From IMG/VR virus record IMGVR_UViG_3300022925_000006: a DNA stretch of 64,000 nt, one strand, 5' to 3'. A program made the translations under genes and the position numbers. The notes below the pieces were generated by a model, which worked only from the letters and a program-made list of their open reading frames with translations, ran no database searches and was not told where the DNA came from. The DNA comes from a virus. Positions 28,522-60,707 of the stretch are shown piece by piece. Position 1 is the first letter of the stretch. Each line of letters begins with the position of its first letter.

Positions 28522-28597
28522 CGACTTATGGTGAAACTGGATATCATACGAGTCTTCTAAACTTGGGTTCAAGGTTCGAGTCCTTGTAGGTCGGCCA
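28522..28597 (+). tRNA. tRNA-Arg(TCT)
   Basis: Cloverleaf: CGACTTA/TAGGTCG acceptor, anticodon loop CTTCTAA, TTCGAGT T-loop, encoded CCA. Confidence 0.9.
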
Positions 28598-28607
28598 ATC
28601 AATCACT

Positions 28608-28682
28608 GCCTCCGTAGTTTAACGGATAAAACGATGCGCTACGAACGCATAACTCGTGGTTCGATTCCATGCGGGGGCGCCA
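28608..28682 (+). tRNA. tRNA-Arg(ACG)
   Basis: GCCTCCG/CGGGGGC acceptor, ATGCG-CTACGAA-CGCAT anticodon arm, TTCGATT, encoded CCA. Confidence 0.92.
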
Positions 28683-35363: not shown

Positions 35364-35389
35364 AGGGTCTCTTCGGAGACCCTTTTTTT
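35364..35389 (+). terminator. Rho-independent terminator with cUUCGg tetraloop
   Basis: AGGGTCTC-TTCG-GAGACCCT followed by a T-run; lies between convergent genes. Confidence 0.9.
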
Positions 35390-37298
35390 ATGCTACTCGG
35401 TCTAGTTGGTCTACCGCTGGAGTCGGGTCAGACACTAAGGAGTTGTTTGTTGTATTAGAGGTTGTTGACCTACTTGAGGCATCAACAACAGCAGTAGATG
35501 AGGCACTAGACTGTTGTTTCAGTTCTGCGTTCTGGCTAGACTGATTATTAACTTCTGCATTTCTTACAGGGCCAAGACCCAACGCAGAGTTAACCTGATT
35601 CATCGTTGCGGTAATCTCTGGAACTTTAAGTGATGGGTCAAGAATACCTTTCTTAAAGTCAATTTTTTTGTTAAAACCTGCTGTTTCAAATTCGACTTGA
35701 CCACCATTTGCCAGTCCACCCAATAGAGCAGGAAGATGACCAAAACTATCTAACATACCTTCGATGTCTATTGAACCAGACCCGATGTTGATACCAGACA
35801 TCTTTTGCAGTGCATCTGCCATTCGAGTGAGACCACGAGATGCCTTATTGATTTCAGTCTCTCTGTCAGCAATTGACAACATTTGTTCTATAGGTGATTG
35901 ACCACCAGTCATGAAGTTCAGAATACCAGAAGCTGCATTTGCAAGAGAGGATACAAAGTTACCTGCGCCAAATACACCGAGACCAGCACCTAATGATACC
36001 ATAGCGTCTCTTACATTATTCGCCCTTGTCAACATATTAGAGGAGTCTTCTCCACCAATAGACAAAAGTGTGTTTACTTGGTTTTTAGTTTTTTCTGCAA
36101 AGTCATCCTTTGAGAAGAAGTCGCCAAGTGCTTTAACTACTTGACCGCCACCAAACACAGCAAGACCAACACCAAGACCACCTAATGCGAGAGCAACAGC
36201 GCCTCCCTCTGCCAACATTCCTAGAGCGCTCTTATCGAGACCTTCGGGAATACTTAACAGTGTGAGTACTTGGTCTTTTACTAATTGTGCATCAAAATCT
36301 ATTAATTGTGTGATACCACCAACACCAGTACCAATACCAAAAGCGGCCAGACCGAGACCTAGTCCAGTCATAACAGGAGCAAATGCAGTTAACCATGCGG
36401 CATCACCAATACTACCTACGTGTTCGCCGATGGATAGTAATGTGCCAACTTGGTCTTTTACTTTATGTGCATCAAAATCTATTAATTGTGAGACACCAGT
36501 AATCCCAGCACCAATACCGAATGCCGCAAGACCAAGACCCAATGCCATCATTGCGGGTTTGAATAACGCAAGTGTTACAAGTTTAGGAGCGTCTAGTGAT
36601 TCACCGATACTCAATAAGGTTAGAACATTTTTCTTTGTGGTCTCTGCCCAGTTACCTTGGTCAAACTTATCTAATATCCCTTGAGTCATACCAGCGATAC
36701 CACCACCAGCAGAGAAGTATACTAAACCAGTTGCAATTTGTTTCATTGCAGTAGGAAATGCAATAAGAGTGGCCAACTTGGCCAAGTTCATCTCATCACC
36801 GATACTGAGTAGACTCAGAACATTCTTTTTGACCTTCTCACCATCAATCAGACCAGACGACATAAGACCAGCAACAGCAACAATCGCAAGGATGCCGATA
36901 CCAGCACCTTTTGCTAGACTGCCAAGCATACCACCGAATCCCTTGACCTTCTTGCCAAGAGAACTCATGAGGTTACTAGGAGCGTCTTTTGCTGTCTGTA
37001 GTCCTGCCTTTAATGATGATGGTAGATTTGCAAGTTTCTTAAAGAGACTTTTTCTTTCTATCTCTTCTTCTTTCTTATCACCCCTTTCACTCTGGTCTCT
37101 TTTTTCTGCATCCGTACCCATACCAACCAAACTATCTAATAGTGTATTGGTTTCCTTGGCAATACTCACCTTTTCTACATTATAGTTTGTATCTTGAGTA
37201 TGGTTTTCTTTGAGCGTGTTGATTACTTTCCTCAGAAGGTTCTTCTGAGAATCGCTGTCTCTACCTGCCCCTTTTGCGGGATGCATTTCCTCGGCCAT
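35388..37298 (-). CDS. Tape-measure protein candidate (gp29 analog)
   Basis: 636 aa, Ala/Gly/Leu-rich helical, repeated K-x-[NQ]V-x-[ST]LLSI units; directly downstream of gp26/gp51. Confidence 0.6.
   Translation of the reverse strand: MAEEMHPAKGAGRDSDSQKNLLRKVINTLKENHTQDTNYNVEKVSIAKETNTLLDSLVGMGTDAEKRDQSERGDKKEEEIERKSLFKKLANLPSSLKAGLQTAKDAPSNLMSSLGKKVKGFGGMLGSLAKGAGIGILAIVAVAGLMSSGLIDGEKVKKNVLSLLSIGDEMNLAKLATLIAFPTAMKQIATGLVYFSAGGGIAGMTQGILDKFDQGNWAETTKKNVLTLLSIGESLDAPKLVTLALFKPAMMALGLGLAAFGIGAGITGVSQLIDFDAHKVKDQVGTLLSIGEHVGSIGDAAWLTAFAPVMTGLGLGLAAFGIGTGVGGITQLIDFDAQLVKDQVLTLLSIPEGLDKSALGMLAEGGAVALALGGLGVGLAVFGGGQVVKALGDFFSKDDFAEKTKNQVNTLLSIGGEDSSNMLTRANNVRDAMVSLGAGLGVFGAGNFVSSLANAASGILNFMTGGQSPIEQMLSIADRETEINKASRGLTRMADALQKMSGINIGSGSIDIEGMLDSFGHLPALLGGLANGGQVEFETAGFNKKIDFKKGILDPSLKVPEITATMNQVNSALGLGPVRNAEVNNQSSQNAELKQQSSASSTAVVDASSRSTTSNTTNNSLVSDPTPAVDQLDRVA
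36268..36560 (-). repeat. 180-bp internal tandem duplication in the tape-measure candidate
   Basis: ACTTGGTCTTTTACT...TGTGCATCAAAATCTATTAATTGTG at 36268 and 36448. Confidence 0.75.
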
Positions 37299-37487
37299 CT
37301 ATCTACCCTGTTGTTGTTTCATTTTTTCGTTCTCTTCTTTAATATAATCAGTAAGAAGAGAAACATAAACTTCCCTTTCCCACGGTATCATCATTTCTAG
37401 TTCACCTAAACCATAGTGATGATGTTGCATTAACGAAAAATTAGTTTGATAATAATTAATCAAACTATCATGGGAAAGGTTTACTAA
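37299..37487 (-). CDS. gp51: Baseplate hub assembly protein gp51-like (open -1 frame; first ATG at 37430)
   Basis: LSHDSLINYYQTNFSLMQHHHYGLGELEMMIPWEREVYVSLL; absent from ORF track. Confidence 0.8.
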   Translation of the reverse strand, partial: LVNLSHDSLINYYQTNFSLMQHHHYGLGELEMMIPWEREVYVSLLTDYIKEENEKMKQQQGR

Positions 37488-38185
37488 AAAAAATCAGTAA
37501 AGCCTGATAACGTATGTTTATTTTCTGTGCCACATTCGTTACAATCAAACTCAATTTCTTTGGTTAATGTTGGAATAGTCGAAACAAACTCGCTAACTTT
37601 TTTGAACTGGTCACCAGTCATAGAGTCAACAAATTCATATAATTCCTTTTTCGACACATCACTTGCATTCATCTGTTCTTCTTCAGTCATAATACTTTTA
37701 ATACTATAGACAATTAATTCAATCAATTGTTCGGTCTGAGACATACCTTCTTTCATGTTCATAAGAACAGAAGCTGACGGGTATCCCATCTCAATACTAA
37801 TGTCTTCTTGAAGTTCGATGGTCTGTACTGGATTATCCATCTCAATTTCAATGTCATCAATATTAATTGATACTTCGTTTGCAGTCTTACACTCAGAACA
37901 AGAAACGTTTAGATTACTACGTTCTCCGACTGACTTACTACGAAGTTTGGTAAACATATACTCAACATCAAATGTAGTGAGTTCTTGTTTATTAATTTTA
38001 TCGTCAACACACACTTCAATTGTATCAATGATTGCCTTCATCGCTTGAACAGTATCTTGACTCTCAAACGCCATAAGAAGAACCTTCTCTTCTTTTACCA
38101 AGTATGGACGGAATCTTACCGTCTGTTGTTTCGATGGAATTACCATCTCATACTTTGGGTTACTATTTAACTTAGGTAATGCCAT
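37484..38185 (-). CDS. gp26: Baseplate hub assembly chaperone gp26-like
   Basis: MALPKL, FRPYLVKEEKVLL, FDVEYMF..LRSKSVGE, two CxxC, ends GFTDFF. Confidence 0.85.
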   Translation of the reverse strand: MALPKLNSNPKYEMVIPSKQQTVRFRPYLVKEEKVLLMAFESQDTVQAMKAIIDTIEVCVDDKINKQELTTFDVEYMFTKLRSKSVGERSNLNVSCSECKTANEVSINIDDIEIEMDNPVQTIELQEDISIEMGYPSASVLMNMKEGMSQTEQLIELIVYSIKSIMTEEEQMNASDVSKKELYEFVDSMTGDQFKKVSEFVSTIPTLTKEIEFDCNECGTENKHTLSGFTDFF

Positions 38186-39499: not shown

Positions 39500-41194
39500 T
39501 TATTTATACCAATTTATCTTAGATTTTTTATAGTTTTCAATAAAATCATAGTATCGGTCAACATCATCCTGACCTATAATTGGGGGGTTGCCCGAATATA
39601 CATCATTTAAGTCGTATCCTAATACACTGTACCAGTGCATGTGCCAGCCACTTAGACTCTCTGGTCTTCCTAGTTTTTGTATTCTATCAGATTGAAACTT
39701 GGCACTCCATTCTACCATATCAATAAAATCATAATCTCCACTTGGATGTACCCATGTACGTTGCATAGTTTCTTTTGCTCGGTCTTTTAGTTCTTCTTGT
39801 TTCAACCAATCAACATTTTTATTTTCTATCATATCATGTATTGAAACGTTATCTGGTATTATTCGTTTTACTTCCCAATTGGTATAATAATACGATTCAA
39901 CTATCCTATCAATAGGGGTCTTATTTCTCCATGTGTATCCGTACTTTGACGGGTCTTTTTCTATTTCAGATACCGCATCAATACCATCATGACCCACGTG
40001 TTGCGATATGTATAGTCCATGCATTGTTACTTGGTTCTTCCAATACTTGTTCAACCAATCCGCAGTATTGTCAAGAGTCTCAAACGTTTCGTGTGGTAAT
40101 CCCGCAATCATTGATAGTGTTCCATTATAATGATTACCCGATAATACATTTTTTCTAAAGTATTCTTCTCCTGCCAACAGCCCTTCTTGTATTATAAGAG
40201 GGGACATTCCTTTTCTGATTGACTTTGCAGACGCATGATTGAACGACTCAAGTCCCATAGAGTGACTGGTGAATCCCATAGTAATCATATTATCCCAGTC
40301 TTCTCTCGCTCGTTTTACAAACAAGTCTCCTCTAACAAATCCATGAAACTGAGGTTGAAAGGGTAATGTCTTTACAACATTAGCAAACTTCTCAATCTTC
40401 TCTGAACGGTCATTACAAGTCTCATCCGCAAGCACGTAACGAGTCACTCCCCATCTATCGTAGTTTTCTCGCAACTCTTCTTCAAAGTTTATTGCATCTC
40501 TGGTATGGTCTCCCTTGACACCCAGTGGTGCATAGTCACAGAATGTACACTTGAACATACATCCTCGTGATAACTCTATAGTTAACACTTCATTCTTTTG
40601 TATGAAGTCTCTTTCCTCGTATGATGTTCTTGGGTTCTTGTGTGGAAATGCGGGATAGTCTTTGAAACAATCAATGATTTTAAATTTCTTATTGGTCATA
40701 TCAATAAGATTAAATGGGTTGGTCATCTCTTTGACGTTTGGTTCAGATGCATTACCAACAAAGTAATCACACAAAGCAACGATTGCATGTTCTCCATTAC
40801 CTACAGAAAAGTAATCTACATTCTCGTGACGTATAACATTTACAAGTTTATTTGCACCCACGACAATTTTAATCCAAGGGTATTTCTTTTTAATGTATCT
40901 TATAAGCCTGTTGTGTTTTACTACTAACGGTGGTGCAGAAAAAATAGAGTATGTAAAGAACACACTGAATCCTATCCATTTTGTATCATGAGTAACCCGA
41001 CTATCAACAAAATCTTTTAGTTCTTCGTCTGACCACGCATCAACAAAGTCCAAAACTTCAACGTCCCATCCCCTCGCTTCTCTTAAATGTGAAGCAATCC
41101 TGTGTGCTCCTGTTCCACGAACAGGTATATCACGACCACTGTATCCGACTGGATACGTTATATTAGCTCCAGTGATAATTAGTGCGTGATTCAT
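39500..41194 (-). CDS. Cobalamin-binding radical SAM protein
   Basis: N-terminal GAHRIASHLR...IGFS...VVG...GNGE B12-binding-like domain; SRGCMFKCTFC, ADET, MGLES, IAGLPHET. Confidence 0.85.
   Translation of the reverse strand: MNHALIITGANITYPVGYSGRDIPVRGTGAHRIASHLREARGWDVEVLDFVDAWSDEELKDFVDSRVTHDTKWIGFSVFFTYSIFSAPPLVVKHNRLIRYIKKKYPWIKIVVGANKLVNVIRHENVDYFSVGNGEHAIVALCDYFVGNASEPNVKEMTNPFNLIDMTNKKFKIIDCFKDYPAFPHKNPRTSYEERDFIQKNEVLTIELSRGCMFKCTFCDYAPLGVKGDHTRDAINFEEELRENYDRWGVTRYVLADETCNDRSEKIEKFANVVKTLPFQPQFHGFVRGDLFVKRAREDWDNMITMGFTSHSMGLESFNHASAKSIRKGMSPLIIQEGLLAGEEYFRKNVLSGNHYNGTLSMIAGLPHETFETLDNTADWLNKYWKNQVTMHGLYISQHVGHDGIDAVSEIEKDPSKYGYTWRNKTPIDRIVESYYYTNWEVKRIIPDNVSIHDMIENKNVDWLKQEELKDRAKETMQRTWVHPSGDYDFIDMVEWSAKFQSDRIQKLGRPESLSGWHMHWYSVLGYDLNDVYSGNPPIIGQDDVDRYYDFIENYKKSKINWYK
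39501..39508 (-). promoter_or_regulatory. T4-type late promoter
   Basis: TATAAATA just upstream of the gp2 start. Confidence 0.7.
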
Positions 41195-43557: not shown

Positions 43558-44928
43558 ATGGTTGGTTCATCTAAACCATCACAGTCTCAACAGTTTAAGA
43601 TAACTGAAGCGTCTATTAGTTCAGACCGCTTTGGCGGTTTTGAGTCAAACTCCTTTGATGTCAGAACCTCTATTGCGGAGTTTACGGTATTTGAAAGTTT
43701 GGATAAACCTTATCTAACAGGACAGGTTGTTATTCTTGATGACAAAGCATTGTTTGATAGAATCAACTTCCAAGGCACCGAAAGATTCAAAATCACAATG
43801 GCATCCGTAGATAATGATTTAGATACGGTATTTGAACGTATCTTTATTATGACAGGTATTGAACGTTCTGTCAAGTCAAATGATAACGCAAAATCTAGTA
43901 TGTTTGTGTTTACACTCTTGGACGAACATGCGTTTATATCCAGTGTAAAGAAGATTAGTAAATCATTTAATGGTCGTATTGATGAGATTTTGATTCGACT
44001 ACTAGCCACCGAAATGAAACTTGATATCGACCTTTCATATCTATTTTTACCTAATGGGTCGAAGAGTGTGCCTATACAAACTAACTTGAAAGGTATCATT
44101 CCCAATCTAAGTCCTATTGAAGCAATCAAGTGGTTAACCACAAGAGCAACAACAGTCACAGGTTCTCCGTTCTTTGCCTATGCTTCGATGCATGATGACA
44201 ATCTACGTCTCGGTAATCTGGATTCCATGTTATCACAAAAAGCGTTTAACACAATGTTGCCCTATACATATAACCCAGCCAACATTGCCAACGCAGAAAC
44301 ACAAACAGAATTTGAGAAAACGTTTACAATCAAATCACTAACTACCAGTAAACAAGCAAACACTCTGAAACTTATTCAGGAAGGTGCGATTGGTTCTCAA
44401 TTACAAAACACCAATCTAAACACTGGTCAGATATTTTCTGGTCATCATAGTATGAGAAAAACATTAGATAGACTAGAAAAGAATCAAATCATTGGTGACA
44501 GTCAAGCGATATTTGACCCAGAGTTCAAGTTAAACGGAATTCTTTCGGATGAATTTAATTCACATATCTATCACACAGTAACTTCTACTGGAACTTATGG
44601 TAGACATAAGAGTTATCATGACGAATATGACGGAAGTAAATTTAAAAAGAAACTGGAAAGACGTGCAATATTAAATGGTCTGTACAAAAATATGATGAAT
44701 ATTGTGGTAGAAGGGGCTGGTTTTATTGTTTCTAAAGCAAGTGTCGGTGATGTTATAAATCTAAAAGTTGTTAATGACAATGTTGAATCGTCTATAACAG
44801 CTACCGAAGATGACCTAATAGACAAGAACAAATCAGGTGATTTTATCATCTATGACACCAGACATACATTTGCTGGAACACAACATTCGGTCGCATTGAA
44901 TCTGTGTAAGATGGAGAGACTTAAATAA
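43558..44928 (+). CDS. Putative baseplate hub protein (gp27-like position)
   Basis: FESLDKPYLTG, GDFII...RHTF; lies between gp53 and gp5. Confidence 0.5.
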   Translation: MVGSSKPSQSQQFKITEASISSDRFGGFESNSFDVRTSIAEFTVFESLDKPYLTGQVVILDDKALFDRINFQGTERFKITMASVDNDLDTVFERIFIMTGIERSVKSNDNAKSSMFVFTLLDEHAFISSVKKISKSFNGRIDEILIRLLATEMKLDIDLSYLFLPNGSKSVPIQTNLKGIIPNLSPIEAIKWLTTRATTVTGSPFFAYASMHDDNLRLGNLDSMLSQKAFNTMLPYTYNPANIANAETQTEFEKTFTIKSLTTSKQANTLKLIQEGAIGSQLQNTNLNTGQIFSGHHSMRKTLDRLEKNQIIGDSQAIFDPEFKLNGILSDEFNSHIYHTVTSTGTYGRHKSYHDEYDGSKFKKKLERRAILNGLYKNMMNIVVEGAGFIVSKASVGDVINLKVVNDNVESSITATEDDLIDKNKSGDFIIYDTRHTFAGTQHSVALNLCKMERLK

Positions 44929-45785
44929 TGAAACCCATTCTATCAGAGTTCTATGGTGACAATACAAGATGGTTCATTGCAACTGTTATTGACGCATCAC
45001 CCCCATACGGTTATGAGGGTAGAGTGAAGATTCGTGTACACGGATTACATACACCATCGACCAGACTCATCCCACAAGCAGACCTACCTTGGGCGCAATG
45101 TCTCACACCAACTACCGAAGGCGGAATCTCTGGTATCGGTAGAATGCCACAATTACAACCTAATGCATTGGTATTTGGTTTCTTTGTCGATGGCATGAAC
45201 TCACAGACACCTGTTGTATTTGGTTCTCTTCCCCATATAGAGTTCCCAACTACCGTACAAAAAGGTCAGAAGAAAGAGGATGTCGGTCAAGATAATAAAC
45301 CAGAAACCGTTTGGGAGAATCTTGTTGCAGCCGTAAAACCTAAAGATATTGATATTGATAATACAAATTCGGGTAATATCTCTACTTTGGTCAAACAACA
45401 GCGAGAGAAGACCGCAGTACAATTCTTTTTAAATTTGGGATACTCGATAAAACAGTCTATCGGTCTTACTGCTGGACTATCGTATTCTTCGGGAATGCGT
45501 ACTGGTGTCAATACACAATCAAAAGGTCTGGCAAACTTTAACATAACCCGTTATGCTGAACTTCAAAAGTTTTCTCCGAAGTTTGAGAATTTTTTAACAC
45601 AGTTATCATTTATTGCATATGAGTTGAATGGTTCGCAATCTAACGCAAACATTAGATTGTTACAATCAAAACAACTTGAGAATAAAGGCATATGTCACAT
45701 TGTCGGTAAATACTATTTGAATAATGCCGCAACAGTAAAACAAATAGAACTACTCGCAAGACGTATGATGGATAGGATAGTTTAA
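44928..45785 (+). CDS. gp5: gp5 N-terminal OB domain plus degenerate tail-lysozyme domain
   Basis: GRVKIRVHGLH, DLPWA, VFGFFVDG..SQTPVVFG. Confidence 0.75.
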   Translation: MKPILSEFYGDNTRWFIATVIDASPPYGYEGRVKIRVHGLHTPSTRLIPQADLPWAQCLTPTTEGGISGIGRMPQLQPNALVFGFFVDGMNSQTPVVFGSLPHIEFPTTVQKGQKKEDVGQDNKPETVWENLVAAVKPKDIDIDNTNSGNISTLVKQQREKTAVQFFLNLGYSIKQSIGLTAGLSYSSGMRTGVNTQSKGLANFNITRYAELQKFSPKFENFLTQLSFIAYELNGSQSNANIRLLQSKQLENKGICHIVGKYYLNNAATVKQIELLARRMMDRIV

Positions 45786-47686
45786 TGATATTAAAAGATG
45801 ATTTGAATACTAATCTAAAAGCGGAAGCACGAAAGAAGGCTGCCGAGAATAATATATTCAAAGATAAAGCCACAAAGGCAATAGATGAAAAGTTTGTCAA
45901 GACTTCGACCCTAGTCGGTAAAGTTGATGGTGAAGTATTGGGTGGTATTAAGACTATTGGTCAAGTTGCAAGTTCTCCCGAAGAAGCAATTAGTGCTGGT
46001 ATCGGTTTGTTGACAGACAAGATGCCTAGTCTCAGTGGTATTAAGAAACCAAGTATTAATCAGTCTGGAACGACTATCACTTCTTTGACAGGTCTTCCTG
46101 CAATCAAGTGTAACAACCCCAATTCAGGAATGGAAGCTGTATCAGACGGAACACCTCAGAGTATTGCTGAGTGTGCCTCTTTGGTCGAATCTAAAACTGC
46201 CGACTCACTAAAAGAAATATCTGCATTCACCGAGATTATTGAAGCACAAAACGCTACTGGATTGGGTGGTGGTGGTGGATTCTTTGGTGCAATATCTGCC
46301 GCATTATCCGTGTTATCGATTGGTGACCTATTACCAGAAATAGAAGCGCTCGCTCCAATTCGAGAGTTAAATGATAAGGTCAAAGGATTCCAAGATAAAA
46401 TTGAAGCAGGTATAAAAGATTTCGGTAATGAATTGTTCTCTGGACTTGAAGGTGTTGGTGACCAAGTCATAAACGATACTGGCATCAAAGGAATGATTGC
46501 TGACGTAAAACGAATTAAAGCTGAACTGAAGACCTTCCCGTCAGTAAGTAGTGTATTGCCCACTGGATTAAGCGATACTCTTTCTGCTATAAATGACTTC
46601 ACCAAAGAAGTTGATGGTTTTGTTGGTGATTTTGATGAACGAATTGGTGAGGGTTTAGGTGGTGTTCTACAGAATCTAACCGAAGGTATTTCTGGTGCAG
46701 CATCAAGTTATATTGAGAACCTAGTGCCTGGCGGTATTTCTGCTACAGAGAGTGAGAGACGAGCAATTCTAAAAGAATTCTCTTTGGGTAATGACACCGA
46801 TAAAGTCAATGCAGTAAAAACACTGGTTACTAAATCACCCAACGTATCTGAAAAAATGAAATCTGTTTTAGAAGATGCAAGAAGACAACCAACCGCAACA
46901 GACTTGAACAATGCTGTTGTGGATGAAGCACGAAGAAGAGGTATTCCAGAATCAGAGATTGCAGCTGCGTCCGAAGAGCTTGCGACCATTGATGATAGGA
47001 TGAAAAAACTAGATACTACTATTAGTGGTTCTGTTATTATTGATGCTGGTTTATTTGATGAATCTGTACCAGTAGATGAGAATAATCAGAAATGGAGTGG
47101 TCGAAATACTCCCGATGATACATTTACCTATATCGCATCTGTCGAAGAACTTGATGCTGAATTTGCCTCGGTGAAAAGAGATATCACTGAAGTTATTGTT
47201 CATGCAACCGAAACTTATACCAATAAAAATATCGGTTCCATTGAAGTGAATAATATGCAAATTGAATTGGGACAAGACGGTATCGGTTATCATTATGTCA
47301 TTCGTAGAGACGGTAGACTGCAACGTGGTAGACCAGTTAACCGTGTCGGTGAACATGCCGTGGTTAATGGCCATGACGTATATTCTATTGGTATCGCTTT
47401 AGTTGGTGGTCTAAATATATCTGCGGGAGATGATAATCCGACAGATTATAAGTCTTCACAATCATTTACTCGCCAACAGTATACGACACTAGAAAAGTTT
47501 TTGAGAAGTTTCTACCGAAAATATCCAGGCGGACAAGTCTTTGGACATAACGATGTAGATGAAAGTGAACTTGACCCATATTTTGATGTAGTGGACTATG
47601 TTGAATCGGTATTCAGGAAAAAGAATATTCTTACTGAACCATCAACACAAGCGCCATTGAGTCCAGCGGAGATTAATGTAGAATGA
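45785..47686 (+). CDS. Baseplate-associated protein with C-terminal N-acetylmuramoyl-L-alanine amidase
   Basis: VIVHAT, IGYHYVIRRDG, GEHA, SIGIALVGG, GHND...DP. Confidence 0.8.
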   Translation: MILKDDLNTNLKAEARKKAAENNIFKDKATKAIDEKFVKTSTLVGKVDGEVLGGIKTIGQVASSPEEAISAGIGLLTDKMPSLSGIKKPSINQSGTTITSLTGLPAIKCNNPNSGMEAVSDGTPQSIAECASLVESKTADSLKEISAFTEIIEAQNATGLGGGGGFFGAISAALSVLSIGDLLPEIEALAPIRELNDKVKGFQDKIEAGIKDFGNELFSGLEGVGDQVINDTGIKGMIADVKRIKAELKTFPSVSSVLPTGLSDTLSAINDFTKEVDGFVGDFDERIGEGLGGVLQNLTEGISGAASSYIENLVPGGISATESERRAILKEFSLGNDTDKVNAVKTLVTKSPNVSEKMKSVLEDARRQPTATDLNNAVVDEARRRGIPESEIAAASEELATIDDRMKKLDTTISGSVIIDAGLFDESVPVDENNQKWSGRNTPDDTFTYIASVEELDAEFASVKRDITEVIVHATETYTNKNIGSIEVNNMQIELGQDGIGYHYVIRRDGRLQRGRPVNRVGEHAVVNGHDVYSIGIALVGGLNISAGDDNPTDYKSSQSFTRQQYTTLEKFLRSFYRKYPGGQVFGHNDVDESELDPYFDVVDYVESVFRKKNILTEPSTQAPLSPAEINVE

Positions 47687-49173
47687 CGACTAAACAAGAT
47701 AATTTTAAAATTCGAGTAGACAAACTCGGAGAAGGACTAGAGAACACACTCGGAGTACCCGAAGATGGGATGCAAGACCCCACAGGTGAGTATCCTAAAC
47801 GAGAGTATAACTTTGGTTCTTCAATCAACAAAGCTGCTCGTGGAACTAAGATAAATGACCTCTATGTTGGGGGTGGTGACTATGGTGTACCACTCAACAT
47901 TGAACCACAACGTCCATCCGAATATCCATTCAATCAAGTTCAAGAGACTACCTCTGGACATGTTGTTGAAATGGATGATACGCCTGGCGGTGAACGTGTA
48001 CTAATTAGACATCGTAAAGGTGCGGGTGTAGAGATGAGGGCCGATGGTTCTGTTATTATCTCTGCTGTCAATAACAAGGTAGAAATAACGGGTGGTGACC
48101 AGACTGTAATCATTGAGGGTAATGGTAACCTTGTGTATCAAGGTAATCTAAATCTAAAGGTTACGGGTGACTATAATGTTGATGTTGGAGGTAACTACAA
48201 TGTCAACGTTGCGGGTAGTCAGAATGAAACTATCGAACATAATCATAAGACAACGGTAACAGGTAACTCAGAATATATTACCAAGAAGACCAAGACAACT
48301 AAGACTGTTGGTACAAGTACCGATGTCATGTTATCAGATTTCAACCAGTTTGTCAAGTTTGATATGAAAACACTTGCGGAAGGTAATATTCAACTATCTT
48401 CTGAAGAGACCATTCTTATTACGGCTAAAGAAGGATTTGCTGCAACGAGTAAGAATACCAATATCACTGGTGCAAAGTATGTGTCGGTGATGGGTCAGAA
48501 AGGTGCGATTGGTGGACGAATGGTTGACTTCACAGGTAACGCATTTATGGGTGGTGAAGGTGCGGTTCCGTTTAACTCTGGTGCTGCATTCTATGGTACA
48601 CTGTTTGGTAAAGCGTCTGAAGCACTATTGGCCAACAATGCGGATAAAGCAGACTTGGCACTTAGGTCTTGGTATGCAACTAATGCTACATCCGCATTAA
48701 CTGCTGTGACCGCTGGCGCATTGGGAGCATCGACTGTTCCGACACTATTAGCCGCATCTGTTCATATTCCATCATTTACTTCGGAACAACAATACACAAG
48801 TTCTGGTGCGGGGGAAGGGCCAATCAACGGTGAGTTTGTTGTTGGACACTCTACCAATGGTGACTATGCAATCAGAACAGTAGTAATTGATGGTGGGGAT
48901 GTGTTAAAGAACAAGACACTATTGACCGATGATTACTTTGATGTGTTTGATAAGATACCAACGACCCAAGAGATTCGTTCTGCTTTCAGAAACTCTGGTT
49001 CTCGTGATGTAGTTGCGGGTGTGCTTGTTTCAGAAGAAAGACTAAATTCCGAGTACAAAACAAGGACTCCTCCAGCGATTGGTAGGACTGTGAAGAAATC
49101 ACCGTCTTCAAGATTCGGATTTGAACCGATTGGTAATGCAATTGAAAATAGAGGAAAGAGATTTACACGATGA
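47683..49173 (+). CDS. gp5 C-terminal beta-helix spike portion
   Basis: YPFNQV.ETTSGHVVEMDDTPGGER, VxGD/VxGN repeats. Confidence 0.75.
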   Translation: MTTKQDNFKIRVDKLGEGLENTLGVPEDGMQDPTGEYPKREYNFGSSINKAARGTKINDLYVGGGDYGVPLNIEPQRPSEYPFNQVQETTSGHVVEMDDTPGGERVLIRHRKGAGVEMRADGSVIISAVNNKVEITGGDQTVIIEGNGNLVYQGNLNLKVTGDYNVDVGGNYNVNVAGSQNETIEHNHKTTVTGNSEYITKKTKTTKTVGTSTDVMLSDFNQFVKFDMKTLAEGNIQLSSEETILITAKEGFAATSKNTNITGAKYVSVMGQKGAIGGRMVDFTGNAFMGGEGAVPFNSGAAFYGTLFGKASEALLANNADKADLALRSWYATNATSALTAVTAGALGASTVPTLLAASVHIPSFTSEQQYTSSGAGEGPINGEFVVGHSTNGDYAIRTVVIDGGDVLKNKTLLTDDYFDVFDKIPTTQEIRSAFRNSGSRDVVAGVLVSEERLNSEYKTRTPPAIGRTVKKSPSSRFGFEPIGNAIENRGKRFTR

Positions 49174-55505: not shown

Positions 55506-58500
55506 ATGCCAAAGACATTTACATCTAACGTATTTAACTCATCTTACAAGGATGATTTCAAGGATAGTGATAATTATCACCGTATCCTATTCAACAGTGG
55601 ACGAGCGCTTCAAGCACGTGAACTTACACAGTTGCAAACAATCATCCAAGAAGAAATTGGTCGCTTTGGTAGGAATGTATTTACAGAAGGTGCTGCAGTA
55701 AATCCTGGCGGCCCATCTATAAACAATGATTACGAATTTATTAAACTGAATACTTCGGTTAATACTTTACCTAGTGATTTAACCACTCTGGTCGGAACAG
55801 AATTTACTGGTCAGACTTCCACTGTAAAAGCAAGAGTTCTCGAAGTTCTTGTTGCGTCAGGTTCAGACCCCGCAACCTTATATGTACAATACACCAATAC
55901 CTCTGGTGCAACTGCGGGTGAAAATACTATTCGCATGGGTGCTGGTGAAGACATCTCTAATGGCACAGATACACTTACTGTACAATCAACCAACACAGTT
56001 AACAACCCTGCTGTTGGTCGAGGTTGTCAAATTTCATCTGCGGAAGGTGACTTCTTTACTCGTGGACACTTTGTCTTTAACGGTAAACAGAGTCTAATCC
56101 TTTCCAAATACTCAAGATACCCTACTAAGGTTGTCGGTTTTAAAGTGACTGAAGATATCGTTACTGTTACTGACACCAATACCCTGTATGATAATCAAGG
56201 TGCAACTCCTAACTTGTCTTCGCCTGGCGCAGACCGTTATCGCATCAAACTTACTCTTACTACTAAAGACCAAATTGTTTCGGACGAAAACTTTGTTTAC
56301 TACTGTGATGTAGCTGACGGGTTAATTGTCGATGAGGCAAAAGGCGAATCTAATTATAACGCAATTAATAAACTTCTTGCGACCAGAACTGAGGAAGAAT
56401 CAGGTAATTATATTGTAGAGCCATTCACGGTTGACTTTGGTGATTCTGCGAATGATTTCCTTGCTTCTGTTTCAGACGGAACCGCATATGTAAATGGTTA
56501 CCGTGCTGACGCTCCAAAACCTACACCTCTAATAATCGCAAAACCAAGACAGACCGAAACTCTAACAAACGAAGTTGCTGGTATTACTTACGGTCAATAT
56601 TTTATATGTGATACGCTTGAAGGTAATCTTAACGTATCAGCATTTGCGACACTAAATTTACGTAGCACTGCATCATATGGTGGTTCTACCATTGGTACTG
56701 CAAGAGTCCGTTATGTAGAAGAAGATGGTGCGAACTATCGAGTCTACTTGTTCGACATTAAAATGAACAGTGGTCAGTCTTTACGTAATGTTAAATCTCT
56801 TGGTACTGGTGCAGCTGATTTTGCTAACCCAATTCTTGAAAATAGTAAAGCTGTTATTAAAGAGTCAACCAAAACAACTTTGGTGTATCCTCTTCCTAAT
56901 CCAAGACCAAGAACTATTAGTGACGTAGACTTTGAGGTTCAACGTATCCGTACAGGTACATCAAGTGGTTCTGGTTCACTGACGCTTTCTTTGTCGGCAA
57001 CTGGCGAAACATTTGTAAACACCTCTCAATGGATTGTCACTCGTAATGATACTGGTGCGGTGGTTTCTCCTTCTGGTATTACTGGCACAGGTACTCAGTC
57101 AACTACTATTAGTGGACTTCCAAACTCTACAGCAGTTACCGTATATCTTAAAGTTAACAAAGCACAACCATCGGTGCGTCAAAAAACATTGGTAGAAACC
57201 ACATTTAGTGGTGCAGTAGAATCCGATGGCACAGGAACTAAATTTGTTAATCTACACGCAACAGATGTATATGATGTATTATCAATCAAACAAACGGATT
57301 CTAGTGGTTCGGATATTTCTTATCTGTTTACTGTTGACGATGGTCAACGTGCTGGTTTCTATGATAATGCACGTCTAGTACTTGAGGGTGGCGCTACTGC
57401 TCCAGCTGGTTCGGTGTTTACAAGATTCAAACACTTTACCCACGGTGCAGGTGATTACTTCGCAGTAAACTCTTACACGGGTCAGGTTGCTTACGAAAAT
57501 ATTCCTAACTTTCAGATTGGCCCTCGTAGTTCAATCAATCTACGTGATGTGATTGACTTCCGTTCATCGGTTGATTCTGACGGACTATTTGCTGGCGGTG
57601 ACGCTGCATTTAACGAAATACCTACTAACGGTGACATCTTCCAAGGTGACGTAGAATACTATGTTCCTCGTGCAGATAAAATTGTTATTACCACACAAGG
57701 TGATATAAAGAACATTAAAGGTGAACCTGGCTTTACTTCACAAGTACCCTTTACTCCCGAAAATACATTGCCCCTCTTTGAATTAGAACTTAACCCATAT
57801 GGTCTAAGTGACTCAGATATCGTTGTAACTCCGATTGAAGCAAAACGTTTCACGATGAAAGATATCTCACAGATTGAGAAAAGAATTGATAAACTAGAAG
57901 AAGTTACTTCACTATCTCTTCTTGAAGTCGATACATCGGCTCTGTTGGTTCTTGATTCTTCGGGTAACCCTAGAAGTAAATCTGGATTCTTTGTTGATAA
58001 CTTCAAAGATAGAAGTTTCTCGGATGCACAGAACTCTGAGTATCGTGCTGCGATTGACCCATCTAGAAACTTCTTAGCACCACAAACAATTGAAGATAAT
58101 GTCGGACTTATCTATGATAGTGCGCTTTCAAGCAATACTATCTTGAAAGGCGATACCATTTTCCTTAATTATGCACATAAAGAAGCAATCACTCAACCAG
58201 TTGTTTCTGGTACTGAGAATGTTAACCCATTTGCGGTTATTACTGGAGAGGGTAATATTACTCTTTCTCCCGCTTCGGATGAATGGCAACAGACAAAATA
58301 TAAACCAGCGAACGTAATTAACAAGACTGCGGAAGAAGACCTTGGTACAATTAACGAAGGTAACCTTGCGGTAGGAACGGCAGTAAGAAGAGGCGTAGCT
58401 AACGAATTCGTATGGAGTGGTCGCCCATTTGCACCTATCGGTGGATTTGGATTTATGCAACTTCCAATCTTCAATGGTTGGAGAGGTGTTGCTGATTGGA

Positions 58501-60707
58501 ACTGGCGTGGTGTACCACTTGCTACAAACAGACAGTCAGACGGTGTTGCTAGAGGTGGTGTTACAACTAACAGAGACCGTGCAGGAACCACAACGACCCG
58601 TTCATTTTCGCAACGTGTTGTTGTTGGAACAAGAACTGTTCGTAAAGTAGTTGGTGATAAAACAGTATCTCTGACATTCTTACCATTTATCCGTTCACGT
58701 AAAGTGTTCTTCCGTGCAGAAGGACTCCGACCTAATACACAATTCTTCCCATTCTTTGATGGTAAACTAGTATCGAATTTCTGTCGTGAAGAGTCTTTCG
58801 AAAGATTTTCGTTAGGTGGAACTTCAGGAATCTATTATGGTAACAGATTCCGCAATTCTAGTTCGCACCCACAGGGTTCGAGTAACTTAGAATCAAATGC
58901 AAATGGTGTGATTGAAGGTTCATTCTTCATCCCATCTTCAACTACTAATCGTTTCCGTACAGGTACTCGTGAGTTTAAACTACTTGATATCAGTATCAAC
59001 AATGATGCAGCTGCATTGTCTCATGCATCAATTAACTATGTTGCACAAGGTACATTAGATACAAGACAGAAGACCATTACCTCTACTCGTATCACTCAGA
59101 AGAGAACCCGTAAGTGGACAGAAACTACTCGTGTCCGTAACCGTGACCCACTTGCTCAGTCATTTACTGTCACAAAACCTTCAGGTATGTTTGTAACTAA
59201 AGTTCAGTGTTACTTTAAGAGTAAGGATTCCAGTGTTCCTGTTGAACTACAGATTCGTCCTATGGTCAATGGTGTCCCGTCTGCAACTGATATTATCGGT
59301 AATGCGATTAAATTCCTGTCACCGTCACAAGTTAACTTACCAGCATCACAGACACAGGCTGCGGTACTTGCCGCTCCTACTACGTTTGAGTTTGATGAAC
59401 CAATCTATCTGAATCCCGAAACGGATTATGCAATTGTTCTACTTGCGGAGTCGGTTGAGTATGAAGCCTATGTTGCTGAGACCTATGCGTTTGAACTAGG
59501 TTCTACCGAGAAACGTGTATCACGACAACCTTCAATGGGTTCACTCTTCAAGTCACAAAATGGTAAGACTTGGGAACCAGACCAAACAAAAGACTTGTCG
59601 TTCAAGATTTTCCAAGCAGAGTTTGATACTGCTGGAGGTTATGCGATATTTGAGAACCGTGACGTAGAAGATGAGGTTTTAGAAAACAATCCATTCTTCA
59701 TGAACAATGCGGACGCAACCGTTACTATGTTGTTCCCAAATCATGGTTATGATGTTAATGATACAGTAACTATTGCTGGATTGGATAGTGCAACAACTTA
59801 TAACGGTATTCTTGGAACTAGTCTCCTTGGTAGCCGAACAGTTACCGCAATTGATGGATTTGGTCTAAGATTTGAAGCTGATAGTGCTGCAACATCTTCG
59901 GGTAGATTTGGTGGAACAGATATCATAGTTGACCAACAAGTTCAATTTGATATTGCAACACCAAACTTTACCACAATGCAACCAGACGATACAAGTTTAT
60001 CCTTTGGTGCTAAGTTTACTACAGGTAAATCTCTGGCAGCTGTTGCTGGTCAACAGACTCGTTATCAGAAAGATGCGACATATAGTGCCGATATTGTGGT
60101 GGGTGAAGAGAACTTCTTTACTGCACCAAGACTTGTTGCGAAAGCCTCAAATGAAACTACGGAACTGGGTTCTGGTGTTCGTTCAACAACCTTTAAGATT
60201 GATATGGGAACGGTTCGTTCGGATGTATCTCCTGTTATTGATGCACAAAGAGCGTCTCTTACTACCACGTCAAACTTGATTGATAATCAAGTCTCATCTG
60301 CTGCTAATGGATATAATGTTCCATTAACATATACGGACGAGACAACACCGTTTGGCGGTTCCGCTTTGGCTAAACATATCACCTCGGTGAATGAACTTGA
60401 AGCAGATGCTGTTGGTATGAAAGTACTGGTATCTGCACTAAGACCATCTAATGCTGACTTTGATTTATATTTCAGAGTTGCGAATGATGGTGAAAATATC
60501 TTTGATAAGGATTGGACACTTCAATCAACAGAAACAACTATTGCACCAGACCCTAATAACTATCGTGAATATCGTTACTTGATTGGTGGTGATGGTGGTG
60601 ATGTTGACCCGTTCACTCAATATCAATTTAAAATTGTGATGCGTTCAAATAACTCATCTAAGATTCCTGTCTTCAAAGACTTCCGAGCAATTGCGTTGGC
60701 AGTATAA
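55506..60707 (+). CDS. Large virion structural protein (VrlC/DUF4815-like)
   Basis: YKDDF..YHRILFNSGRALQARELTQLQ, PGADRY, GFFVDNF, DPLAQSF. Confidence 0.8.
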   Translation: MPKTFTSNVFNSSYKDDFKDSDNYHRILFNSGRALQARELTQLQTIIQEEIGRFGRNVFTEGAAVNPGGPSINNDYEFIKLNTSVNTLPSDLTTLVGTEFTGQTSTVKARVLEVLVASGSDPATLYVQYTNTSGATAGENTIRMGAGEDISNGTDTLTVQSTNTVNNPAVGRGCQISSAEGDFFTRGHFVFNGKQSLILSKYSRYPTKVVGFKVTEDIVTVTDTNTLYDNQGATPNLSSPGADRYRIKLTLTTKDQIVSDENFVYYCDVADGLIVDEAKGESNYNAINKLLATRTEEESGNYIVEPFTVDFGDSANDFLASVSDGTAYVNGYRADAPKPTPLIIAKPRQTETLTNEVAGITYGQYFICDTLEGNLNVSAFATLNLRSTASYGGSTIGTARVRYVEEDGANYRVYLFDIKMNSGQSLRNVKSLGTGAADFANPILENSKAVIKESTKTTLVYPLPNPRPRTISDVDFEVQRIRTGTSSGSGSLTLSLSATGETFVNTSQWIVTRNDTGAVVSPSGITGTGTQSTTISGLPNSTAVTVYLKVNKAQPSVRQKTLVETTFSGAVESDGTGTKFVNLHATDVYDVLSIKQTDSSGSDISYLFTVDDGQRAGFYDNARLVLEGGATAPAGSVFTRFKHFTHGAGDYFAVNSYTGQVAYENIPNFQIGPRSSINLRDVIDFRSSVDSDGLFAGGDAAFNEIPTNGDIFQGDVEYYVPRADKIVITTQGDIKNIKGEPGFTSQVPFTPENTLPLFELELNPYGLSDSDIVVTPIEAKRFTMKDISQIEKRIDKLEEVTSLSLLEVDTSALLVLDSSGNPRSKSGFFVDNFKDRSFSDAQNSEYRAAIDPSRNFLAPQTIEDNVGLIYDSALSSNTILKGDTIFLNYAHKEAITQPVVSGTENVNPFAVITGEGNITLSPASDEWQQTKYKPANVINKTAEEDLGTINEGNLAVGTAVRRGVANEFVWSGRPFAPIGGFGFMQLPIFNGWRGVADWNWRGVPLATNRQSDGVARGGVTTNRDRAGTTTTRSFSQRVVVGTRTVRKVVGDKTVSLTFLPFIRSRKVFFRAEGLRPNTQFFPFFDGKLVSNFCREESFERFSLGGTSGIYYGNRFRNSSSHPQGSSNLESNANGVIEGSFFIPSSTTNRFRTGTREFKLLDISINNDAAALSHASINYVAQGTLDTRQKTITSTRITQKRTRKWTETTRVRNRDPLAQSFTVTKPSGMFVTKVQCYFKSKDSSVPVELQIRPMVNGVPSATDIIGNAIKFLSPSQVNLPASQTQAAVLAAPTTFEFDEPIYLNPETDYAIVLLAESVEYEAYVAETYAFELGSTEKRVSRQPSMGSLFKSQNGKTWEPDQTKDLSFKIFQAEFDTAGGYAIFENRDVEDEVLENNPFFMNNADATVTMLFPNHGYDVNDTVTIAGLDSATTYNGILGTSLLGSRTVTAIDGFGLRFEADSAATSSGRFGGTDIIVDQQVQFDIATPNFTTMQPDDTSLSFGAKFTTGKSLAAVAGQQTRYQKDATYSADIVVGEENFFTAPRLVAKASNETTELGSGVRSTTFKIDMGTVRSDVSPVIDAQRASLTTTSNLIDNQVSSAANGYNVPLTYTDETTPFGGSALAKHITSVNELEADAVGMKVLVSALRPSNADFDLYFRVANDGENIFDKDWTLQSTETTIAPDPNNYREYRYLIGGDGGDVDPFTQYQFKIVMRSNNSSKIPVFKDFRAIALAV

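Follow-up and report, generated by a model that had tools for sequence, protein, structure and literature searches.

A probable programmed -1 frameshift joins the gp26- and gp51-type parts of a chaperone gene in an uncultured T4-like phage

The IMG/VR virus record IMGVR_UViG_3300022925_000006 was analysed here as a stretch of 64,000 nucleotides (hereafter the window; 39% G+C), and the subject of this study is a gp26-type gene on its minus strand together with the reading frame that overlaps the end of that gene. The gp26-type open reading frame (ORF), at 37484-38185, encodes 233 amino acids (aa; the short form, TAC-N), starts at ATG 38185-38183 six bases downstream of a Shine-Dalgarno (SD) sequence GGAG (38195-38192) and stops at TAG 37486-37484, its 3' end reading GAT TTT TTT TAG TAA on the minus strand. 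The candidate slippery heptamer U_UUU_UUU at 37493-37487, read as the codons UUU UUU in the 0 frame, lies within a run of eight T's (T8, 37493-37486). The -1 frame is open from here for a further 62 codons (37299-37487, minus strand), from a first codon TTA at 37487 to a stop codon TAG at 37301-37299, and the ATG (37298) of a 636-aa tape-measure candidate (35388-37298, minus strand) comes directly after that stop. As seen in a listing of ORFs from stop to stop, a TGA at 37494-37496, immediately 5' of the T-run, closes the -1 frame, and the two frames share only the T-run; any change of frame must therefore fall on this run. A ribosome moving into the -1 frame at this point would produce a predicted protein of 233 + 62 = 295 aa. 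The gene end, the heptamer coordinates, the open -1 frame and the downstream ATG had all been given correctly in the original prediction, made from the letters of the DNA, which proposed a gp26-gp51 fusion in the style of lambda G/GT.

Both parts of the putative fusion belong to recognized families of T4-like baseplate proteins. The gp26-type protein matches PF12322 (T4_baseplate) with an E value of 6e-58 over residues 10-233 (profile positions 2-218 of 219) and phrog_150 (baseplate hub) with an E value of 2e-60. The peptide encoded in the -1 frame matches phrog_634 (baseplate hub assembly catalyst, i.e., gp51) from its residue 3 onward with an E value of 3.7e-27, and it also matches phrog_150, which is a gp26/gp51 profile, at positions 235-278, that is, in its last 45 positions. 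When the extension was used as a query in tblastn, 555 phage records were returned, in nearly all of which the alignment started at residue 2 of the query and overlapped with the annotated gp26 at its end. The homology to gp51 thus begins at the slip site and crosses the stop codon of gp26, which supports a frameshift fusion. The nearest relatives of the window are uncultured marine contigs and cyanophages, the identity being at most 79 to 95% to other uncultured contigs and approximately 35 to 50% to the gp26 of cyanophages.

In T4, the same two parts are combined in a different way. T4 gp26 (208 aa) corresponds to the PF12322 domain, and T4 gp51 (249 aa) is composed of a PF12322 domain (residues 1-201) and a C-terminal extension that matches both phrog_634 and the -1 peptide of the window; the latter aligns to residues 207-244 of T4 gp51 (BLASTP, E value of 1e-5 for this single comparison), and T4 is also part of the alignment of the extension. 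Judged by these comparisons, a frameshift in the window would create precisely the domain order found in T4 gp51. Genes 26 and 51 of T4 are divergently transcribed and, since T4 gp51 consists of a gp26-like domain plus a gp51-type extension, T4 makes the short and the long forms from two divergent paralogous genes. T4 gp26 is the counterpart of the short form in the window and T4 gp51 that of the long form, with the difference that T4 employs two genes and no frameshift, whereas the window has a single gene, and no second copy of gp26/gp51 was found when the 64-kb window was searched. The surroundings differ as well: in T4, gene 51 is separated from the tape-measure gene 29 by genes 27 and 28, whereas the chaperone gene of the window adjoins the tape-measure candidate. 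Both T4 proteins appear in a table of assembly chaperones (Table 2 of Leiman et al. 2010, PMC3004832), in which gp51 is given as absent from the finished particle.

A further indication of the function of the gene comes from structure prediction. The AlphaFold model of the window gp26, built on 82 homologues (predicted local distance difference test [pLDDT] of 89.5; predicted template modeling score [pTM] of 0.83), was compared with 48,161 PDB representatives using VIA-align, and the first three ranks were taken by the HK97 tail assembly chaperone 2ob9 (Z 7.4, root mean square deviation of 3.6 over 85 aligned residues) and two chains that look like it, 3fgx (Z 8.1, the top rank) and 3klu (Z 7.1), all covering most of model residues 1-96. 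Values of Z below 8 are middling on the scale of this tool; still, the top three are clear of the rest, of which the best reached Z 5.0, and they span the whole domain. The ORF12 protein of lactococcal phage p2 gave a Z of 3.0 against the same model. The tail assembly chaperone (HK97 gp10-like) fold is therefore the closest to that predicted for the front domain of gp26. Less was obtained from other searches: Foldseek returned no whole-chain match for the model at E values of up to 0.001 (the highest-probability row was again 2ob9, with an E value of 0.46 and a probability of 0.84), a PDB sequence search with the gp26 profile returned no match, and no Pfam phage TAC family was among the matches of the window gp26 at E values of up to 0.1. 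The -1 extension, modeled alone, folds into three helices (pLDDT of 82). The gp26 model also resembles two successive modules, at residues ~1-110 and ~120-233, each with a beta-hairpin at its end that bears a single CxxC pair (CSEC and CNEC, respectively); the match to the HK97 chaperone fold concerns the first module only, and the two-module architecture recalls the internal-start product 26' of T4.

The original prediction made much depend on whether the heptamer and its register are conserved at gp26/gp51 junctions across T4-like phages. Related loci were gathered using the gp26 query (10 loci) and an extension-alignment query (80 kept out of at least 600) and were complemented with four cyanophage isolates; as these loci are related to one another, the z-scores given below for comparisons among them overstate the evidence. 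Every one of the 89 distinct loci had T_TTT_TTN in the same register, as TTTTTTC (45 loci), TTTTTTT (34), TTTTTTA (9) or TTTTTTG (1), and the heptamer is also kept in four distant phages in culture, the Vibrio phages phi-pp2 (a KVP40-type member of the straboviridae) and D486, Sinorhizobium phage phiM9 and Pseudomonas phage pf16. The first Phe codon is always TTT in the 89 loci, compared to a background of 75% TTT, and T is invariably the last base of the Asp, Asn or Ser codon before it, although synonymous alternatives account for 22 to 44% of such codons in the rest of these genes. The second 0-frame codon of the heptamer switches between Phe and Leu from locus to locus while the T-run stays, and it is therefore the nucleotide run that is conserved. 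In most loci, the 0-frame stop codon follows the heptamer directly or one codon later. Between the slip site and Met22 of the extension, the -1 frame has entropies of 0.91, 0.66 and 1.36 at codon positions 1, 2 and 3, respectively, which is a coding pattern, and it is free of stops in 90 of 90 sequences, the other two frames containing stops in 90 and 87 of them.

These data bear directly on the possibility that the two frames are an artefact, the true run being T9 or T6 and the true gene a single ORF, or that they are the remains of a pseudogenised fusion. Sequencing errors occur most often in homopolymer runs, and the original prediction had raised this possibility. On the other hand, 89 independent assemblies, as well as isolate genomes from four phage families, have the frame break in an identical register, no in-frame fused version was found among them, and an assembly error is excluded by this recurrence; both the gp26 part and the extension are, moreover, under purifying selection. 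Taken together, error and decay were left with an almost negligible probability.

The RNA downstream of the heptamer is predicted to form a secondary structure. The minimum free energy (MFE) fold of positions 37486-37365 has -37.1 kcal/mol, compared to -20.1 +/- 3.4 kcal/mol for 200 dinucleotide shuffles (z of -5.0), none of which was as good. It coincides with the structure drawn in the original prediction and contains (i) an 11-bp outer stem (37479-37469 paired with 37384-37374), which begins 7 nucleotides (nt) after the heptamer and closes a three-way junction, the whole forming a candidate stimulatory structure at 37374-37479 of the minus strand; (ii) an inner 9-bp hairpin, UAGUUUGAU / AUCAAACUA, at 37442-37467; and (iii) an inner helix, CAUCAUC / GAUGAUG, around a small hairpin at 37387-37423. 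In a gapless alignment of 90 sequences, 79.6% of the outer-stem cells were paired, with at least 9 of the 11 pairs retained in 62% of sequences; under a null model of synonymous-codon resampling, 66.7 +/- 1.1% of cells were paired, 21% of sequences retained at least 9 of 11 pairs, and 0 of 1,000 resamplings reached the observed value (z of 11). Two pairs of third codon positions covary within this stem, namely 15-120 (CG in 46 sequences, UA in 13) and 18-117 (CG in 29, UA in 29), with Fisher values of 1.5e-7 and 5e-8, respectively. The inner hairpin was paired in 60% of cells, its register not being conserved across relatives, and the inner helix in 73%, mostly at invariant coding columns. Upstream of the heptamer, the predicted duplex with the anti-SD sequence had an energy of -5.99 kcal/mol compared to -5.06 +/- 0.14 kcal/mol under synonymous resampling (85 loci, z of -6.5), and GGG was used at a conserved Gly in 27% of loci against a background of 6.5%.

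Several observations weigh against a ribosomal slip stimulated in this manner, and they concern the RNA elements, the T8 run and the starts available to a separately made gp51-like peptide. With regard to the RNA, the non-pairing column pair 18-58 exceeds the covarying stem pairs in mutual information for purely phylogenetic reasons, and the tree provides only 5 to 6 independent contrasts, in which changes in the same and in the opposite sense number 4.0 versus 0 for one pair and 3.1 versus 1.1 for the other, neither being significant; for these two reasons, the raw covariation tests were set aside. RNAalifold predicted no consensus pairs over the 90 relatives, the outer stem is absent in several clades, no Rfam match was found within 37200-37700, and the window's own SD-like element is weak, consisting of CAGG only. 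The outer stem is thus paired in excess of the synonymous null, but the tree-aware test of its covariation is underpowered and no alignment-wide consensus emerges. Support for the two stimulatory elements, the stem and the SD-like sequence, is only moderate.

The T8 run of the window and of its close relatives could support slippage of the RNA polymerase rather than of the ribosome: by adding one U on the run, the polymerase would bring both frames into one in part of the mRNAs and would give the same long product. In bacteria, RNA polymerase is known to stutter on homopolymers of roughly such a length, for example, in Thermus dnaX and in insertion sequence (IS) elements. Transcriptional slippage could thus contribute in the window, yet it cannot be the general mechanism of the family, because 45 of the 89 relatives have only TTTTTTC, with six T's, and ten have TTTTTTA or TTTTTTG, which are short for efficient polymerase slippage. 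Furthermore, the conserved codon register X_XXY_YYZ matters for the re-pairing of tRNAs and not for a polymerase, and the downstream stem and the upstream SD-like element fit ribosomal frameshifting. As the source of the long form, an mRNA altered by the polymerase is accordingly considered improbable.

Production of the gp51-like peptide as a separate protein, without any fusion, by reinitiation at the gp26 stop codon or from an internal start at TTG 37463 or ATG 37430, was judged slightly less probable still. Such a start would agree with the separate small ORF annotated as "baseplate hub assembly catalyst" in many GenBank records and with the nearly invariant ATG of Met22 in the alignment; in Vibrio phages phi-pp2 and D486 and in phiM9, an ATG even overlaps the gp26 stop codon (TAATG or TGATG), making coupled reinitiation possible there. 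In the window, by contrast, no start codon is present from the slip site to TTG 37463, and neither TTG 37463 nor ATG 37430 is preceded by an SD sequence. Likewise, in 75 of the 89 loci the -1 frame lacks any ATG, GTG or TTG ahead of codon 8, and residues 3-21 of the extension are conserved and show variation of the coding type. An independent start would leave unexplained both the conserved residues that precede every start codon and the conservation of the T6 at synonymous sites, and the homologous segment of T4 occurs only fused to a gp26-like domain. The overlapping ATG of phi-pp2, D486 and phiM9 is the one annotated as the gp51 start; these phages keep the T6 heptamer, and frameshifting and coupled reinitiation could coexist in them.

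The reading that is best supported by the homology across the stop codon, the conserved heptamer, the architecture of T4 gp51 and the chaperone fold is thus the fusion put forward in the original prediction: very probably, a programmed -1 ribosomal frameshift yields forms of 233 and 295 aa from one gene, and the best explanation of the gp26-type gene is a tail (baseplate-hub) assembly chaperone of a T4-like phage that is decoded in two ways. The majority of ribosomes would read GAU UUU UUU and terminate at UAG to give the short form, and a minority would slip one base back on U_UUU_UUU and translate 62 more codons to give the long form, composed of the chaperone body and a small three-helix gp51-type domain. 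The slip could take either of two routes: (i) tandem slippage of two tRNA-Phe or (ii) slippage of the P-site tRNA-Phe alone while the A site waits on a slowly decoded UAG. In the window, the stop codon abuts the heptamer, and both routes would give an identical product. The slip would probably be helped by the stem located 7 nt past the heptamer and, in many relatives, by the G-rich SD-like element approximately 9 to 10 nt upstream. The resulting pair would have its T4 counterparts in gp26, the short form, and in gp51, the long form, which is required in catalytic amounts, and, in logic, gene position and the fold of the front domain, its lambda counterparts in G and GT. What the analysis demonstrates is the sequence features with their conservation, the homologies and the predicted folds; from these we infer the slip and its efficiency, a role for the RNA structure and the partners that either form would bind.

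A more far-reaching proposal would have the frameshift ancestral to the T4-like superfamily, the two genes of T4 being a later duplication, and would have it driven by a conserved composite signal undescribed for the family, comprising an SD-like element approximately 10 nt upstream, a U-rich heptamer that often borders directly on the stop codon, and a long-range three-way-junction stem. The stem closing the junction would here be built from the codons for L-S-H and P-W-E-R-E. Ancestry and signal, taken jointly, are offered as a tentative suggestion that we consider rather doubtful.

The original prediction knew of no tail-chaperone frameshift in T4-like phages; one has, however, been described (Vladimirov, Gautam and Davidson, Virology 2022;566:9-15, doi 10.1016/j.virol.2021.11.003). 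Passages in two later papers that cite this work mention poly-T signals for -1 frameshifting within TAC-N genes of T4-like phages (PMC12846349) and T4-like phages that have a short gene and a long fused gene instead of a frameshift (PMC10274946). As far as these accounts extend, the published pair shares with the window the PF12322 domain with a gp51-type extension, the production of a short and a long form and a poly-T -1 signal at the 3' end of TAC-N, and our searches revealed the same arrangement of short form, long form and poly-T in cyanophages as well as in phages of Vibrio, Sinorhizobium and Pseudomonas. The window differs from the pair so described in that it is an uncultured marine relative, its T8 run is followed at once by the stop codon and its chaperone gene lies directly upstream of the tape-measure candidate. 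The T4-like tail-chaperone frameshift is, on this evidence, already published, and the window is a new, unannotated example of it that is ordinary for its family.

Comparison with better-known -1 frameshifts reveals both similarities and differences. The -1 frameshift of tail assembly chaperone genes is conserved, as exemplified by lambda gpG/gpGT (Xu, Hendrix and Duda, Mol Cell 2004, as cited in a passage of PMC9024508). With lambda G/GT, the window shares two overlapping frames just upstream of a tape-measure gene (here a candidate), a canonical X_XXY_YYZ heptamer, a long form that would contain the short form in full and should be the less abundant of the two products, and a front domain for which the HK97 chaperone fold is predicted. 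The heptamer of lambda is G_GGA_AAG, whereas that of the window is U-rich; the window gp26 is about twice as long and has a second domain and two CxxC pairs, and it has no detectable sequence similarity to the lambda and HK97 proteins in Pfam and PDB sequence searches. So the pair in the window would work like G/GT and, going by the model, share its fold, but it is not a sequence-level member of the Pfam TAC families, as it has neither a TAC Pfam match nor a PDB sequence match. The -1 signals of dnaX and IS911 resemble the window in combining a heptamer with a downstream structure, which here is 7 nt away and closes a three-way junction, and with an SD-like element approximately 9 to 10 nt upstream, which is enriched across the family of the window. 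They are, on the other hand, not homologous elements: the upstream element of the window is weak, Rfam has no match, and the stimulatory role is putative.

The gene directly downstream was taken in the original prediction as a tape-measure candidate. Its position, its length and the five tandem repeats of ~58 aa that make up most of it, each consisting of a "TLLSIGE"-like motif followed by a Gly-rich hydrophobic stretch, fit this function, while the family assignment does not follow: the 636-aa protein has no Pfam or PHROG match, tblastn against 50,697 records of cultured phages returned nothing, and its similarity to T4 gp29 in BLASTP was not significant. In a language-model search, the PF25671 T4_Tape_measure cluster was found at rank 8 with a score of 0.91, which is a lead only. 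Structure matches of the protein in the Atlas were dismissed, having TM scores below 0.3. The protein is likely a tape measure, as judged from position, size and repeats only.

The neighboring genes are of the T4 type and include those for a gp2-type DNA end protector, a protein with the tail-tube fold and, on the opposite strand, gp32; a baseplate module with gp48-, gp53-, gp5-, gp6- and gp8-type genes is located farther along the window. Within the tail and baseplate block, just upstream of the gp2-type gene, a 564-aa protein (39500-41194, minus strand) has B12-binding and radical SAM domains (PF02310 and PF04055) and no PHROG match. The gp5-type hub/lysozyme profile is matched by two plus-strand ORFs, at 44928-45782 (its N-terminal part) and 47683-49170 (a later part), and between them a 633-aa ORF (45785-47683, plus strand) carries a C-terminal amidase domain; because of this arrangement, the cell-puncturing and lytic functions appear to be split over three genes within 44928-49170. 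A 1733-aa ORF (55506-60707, plus strand) lies downstream of the baseplate wedge genes, and two adjacent tRNA-Arg genes with the anticodons TCT and ACG are located at 28522-28682 (plus strand).

To conclude, the annotation of the window should be corrected to one chaperone gene with, very probably, two products, the free-standing 54-aa "gp51" ORF that is to be expected from gene callers probably not being the real product. In most of the GenBank records examined, the two parts still figure as separate genes or the extension has no annotation at all. The practical value of the present analysis lies in annotation and in the benchmarking of frameshift predictors rather than in new biology, and the finding adds an uncultured marine lineage to the published tail-chaperone frameshift of the T4-like phages.

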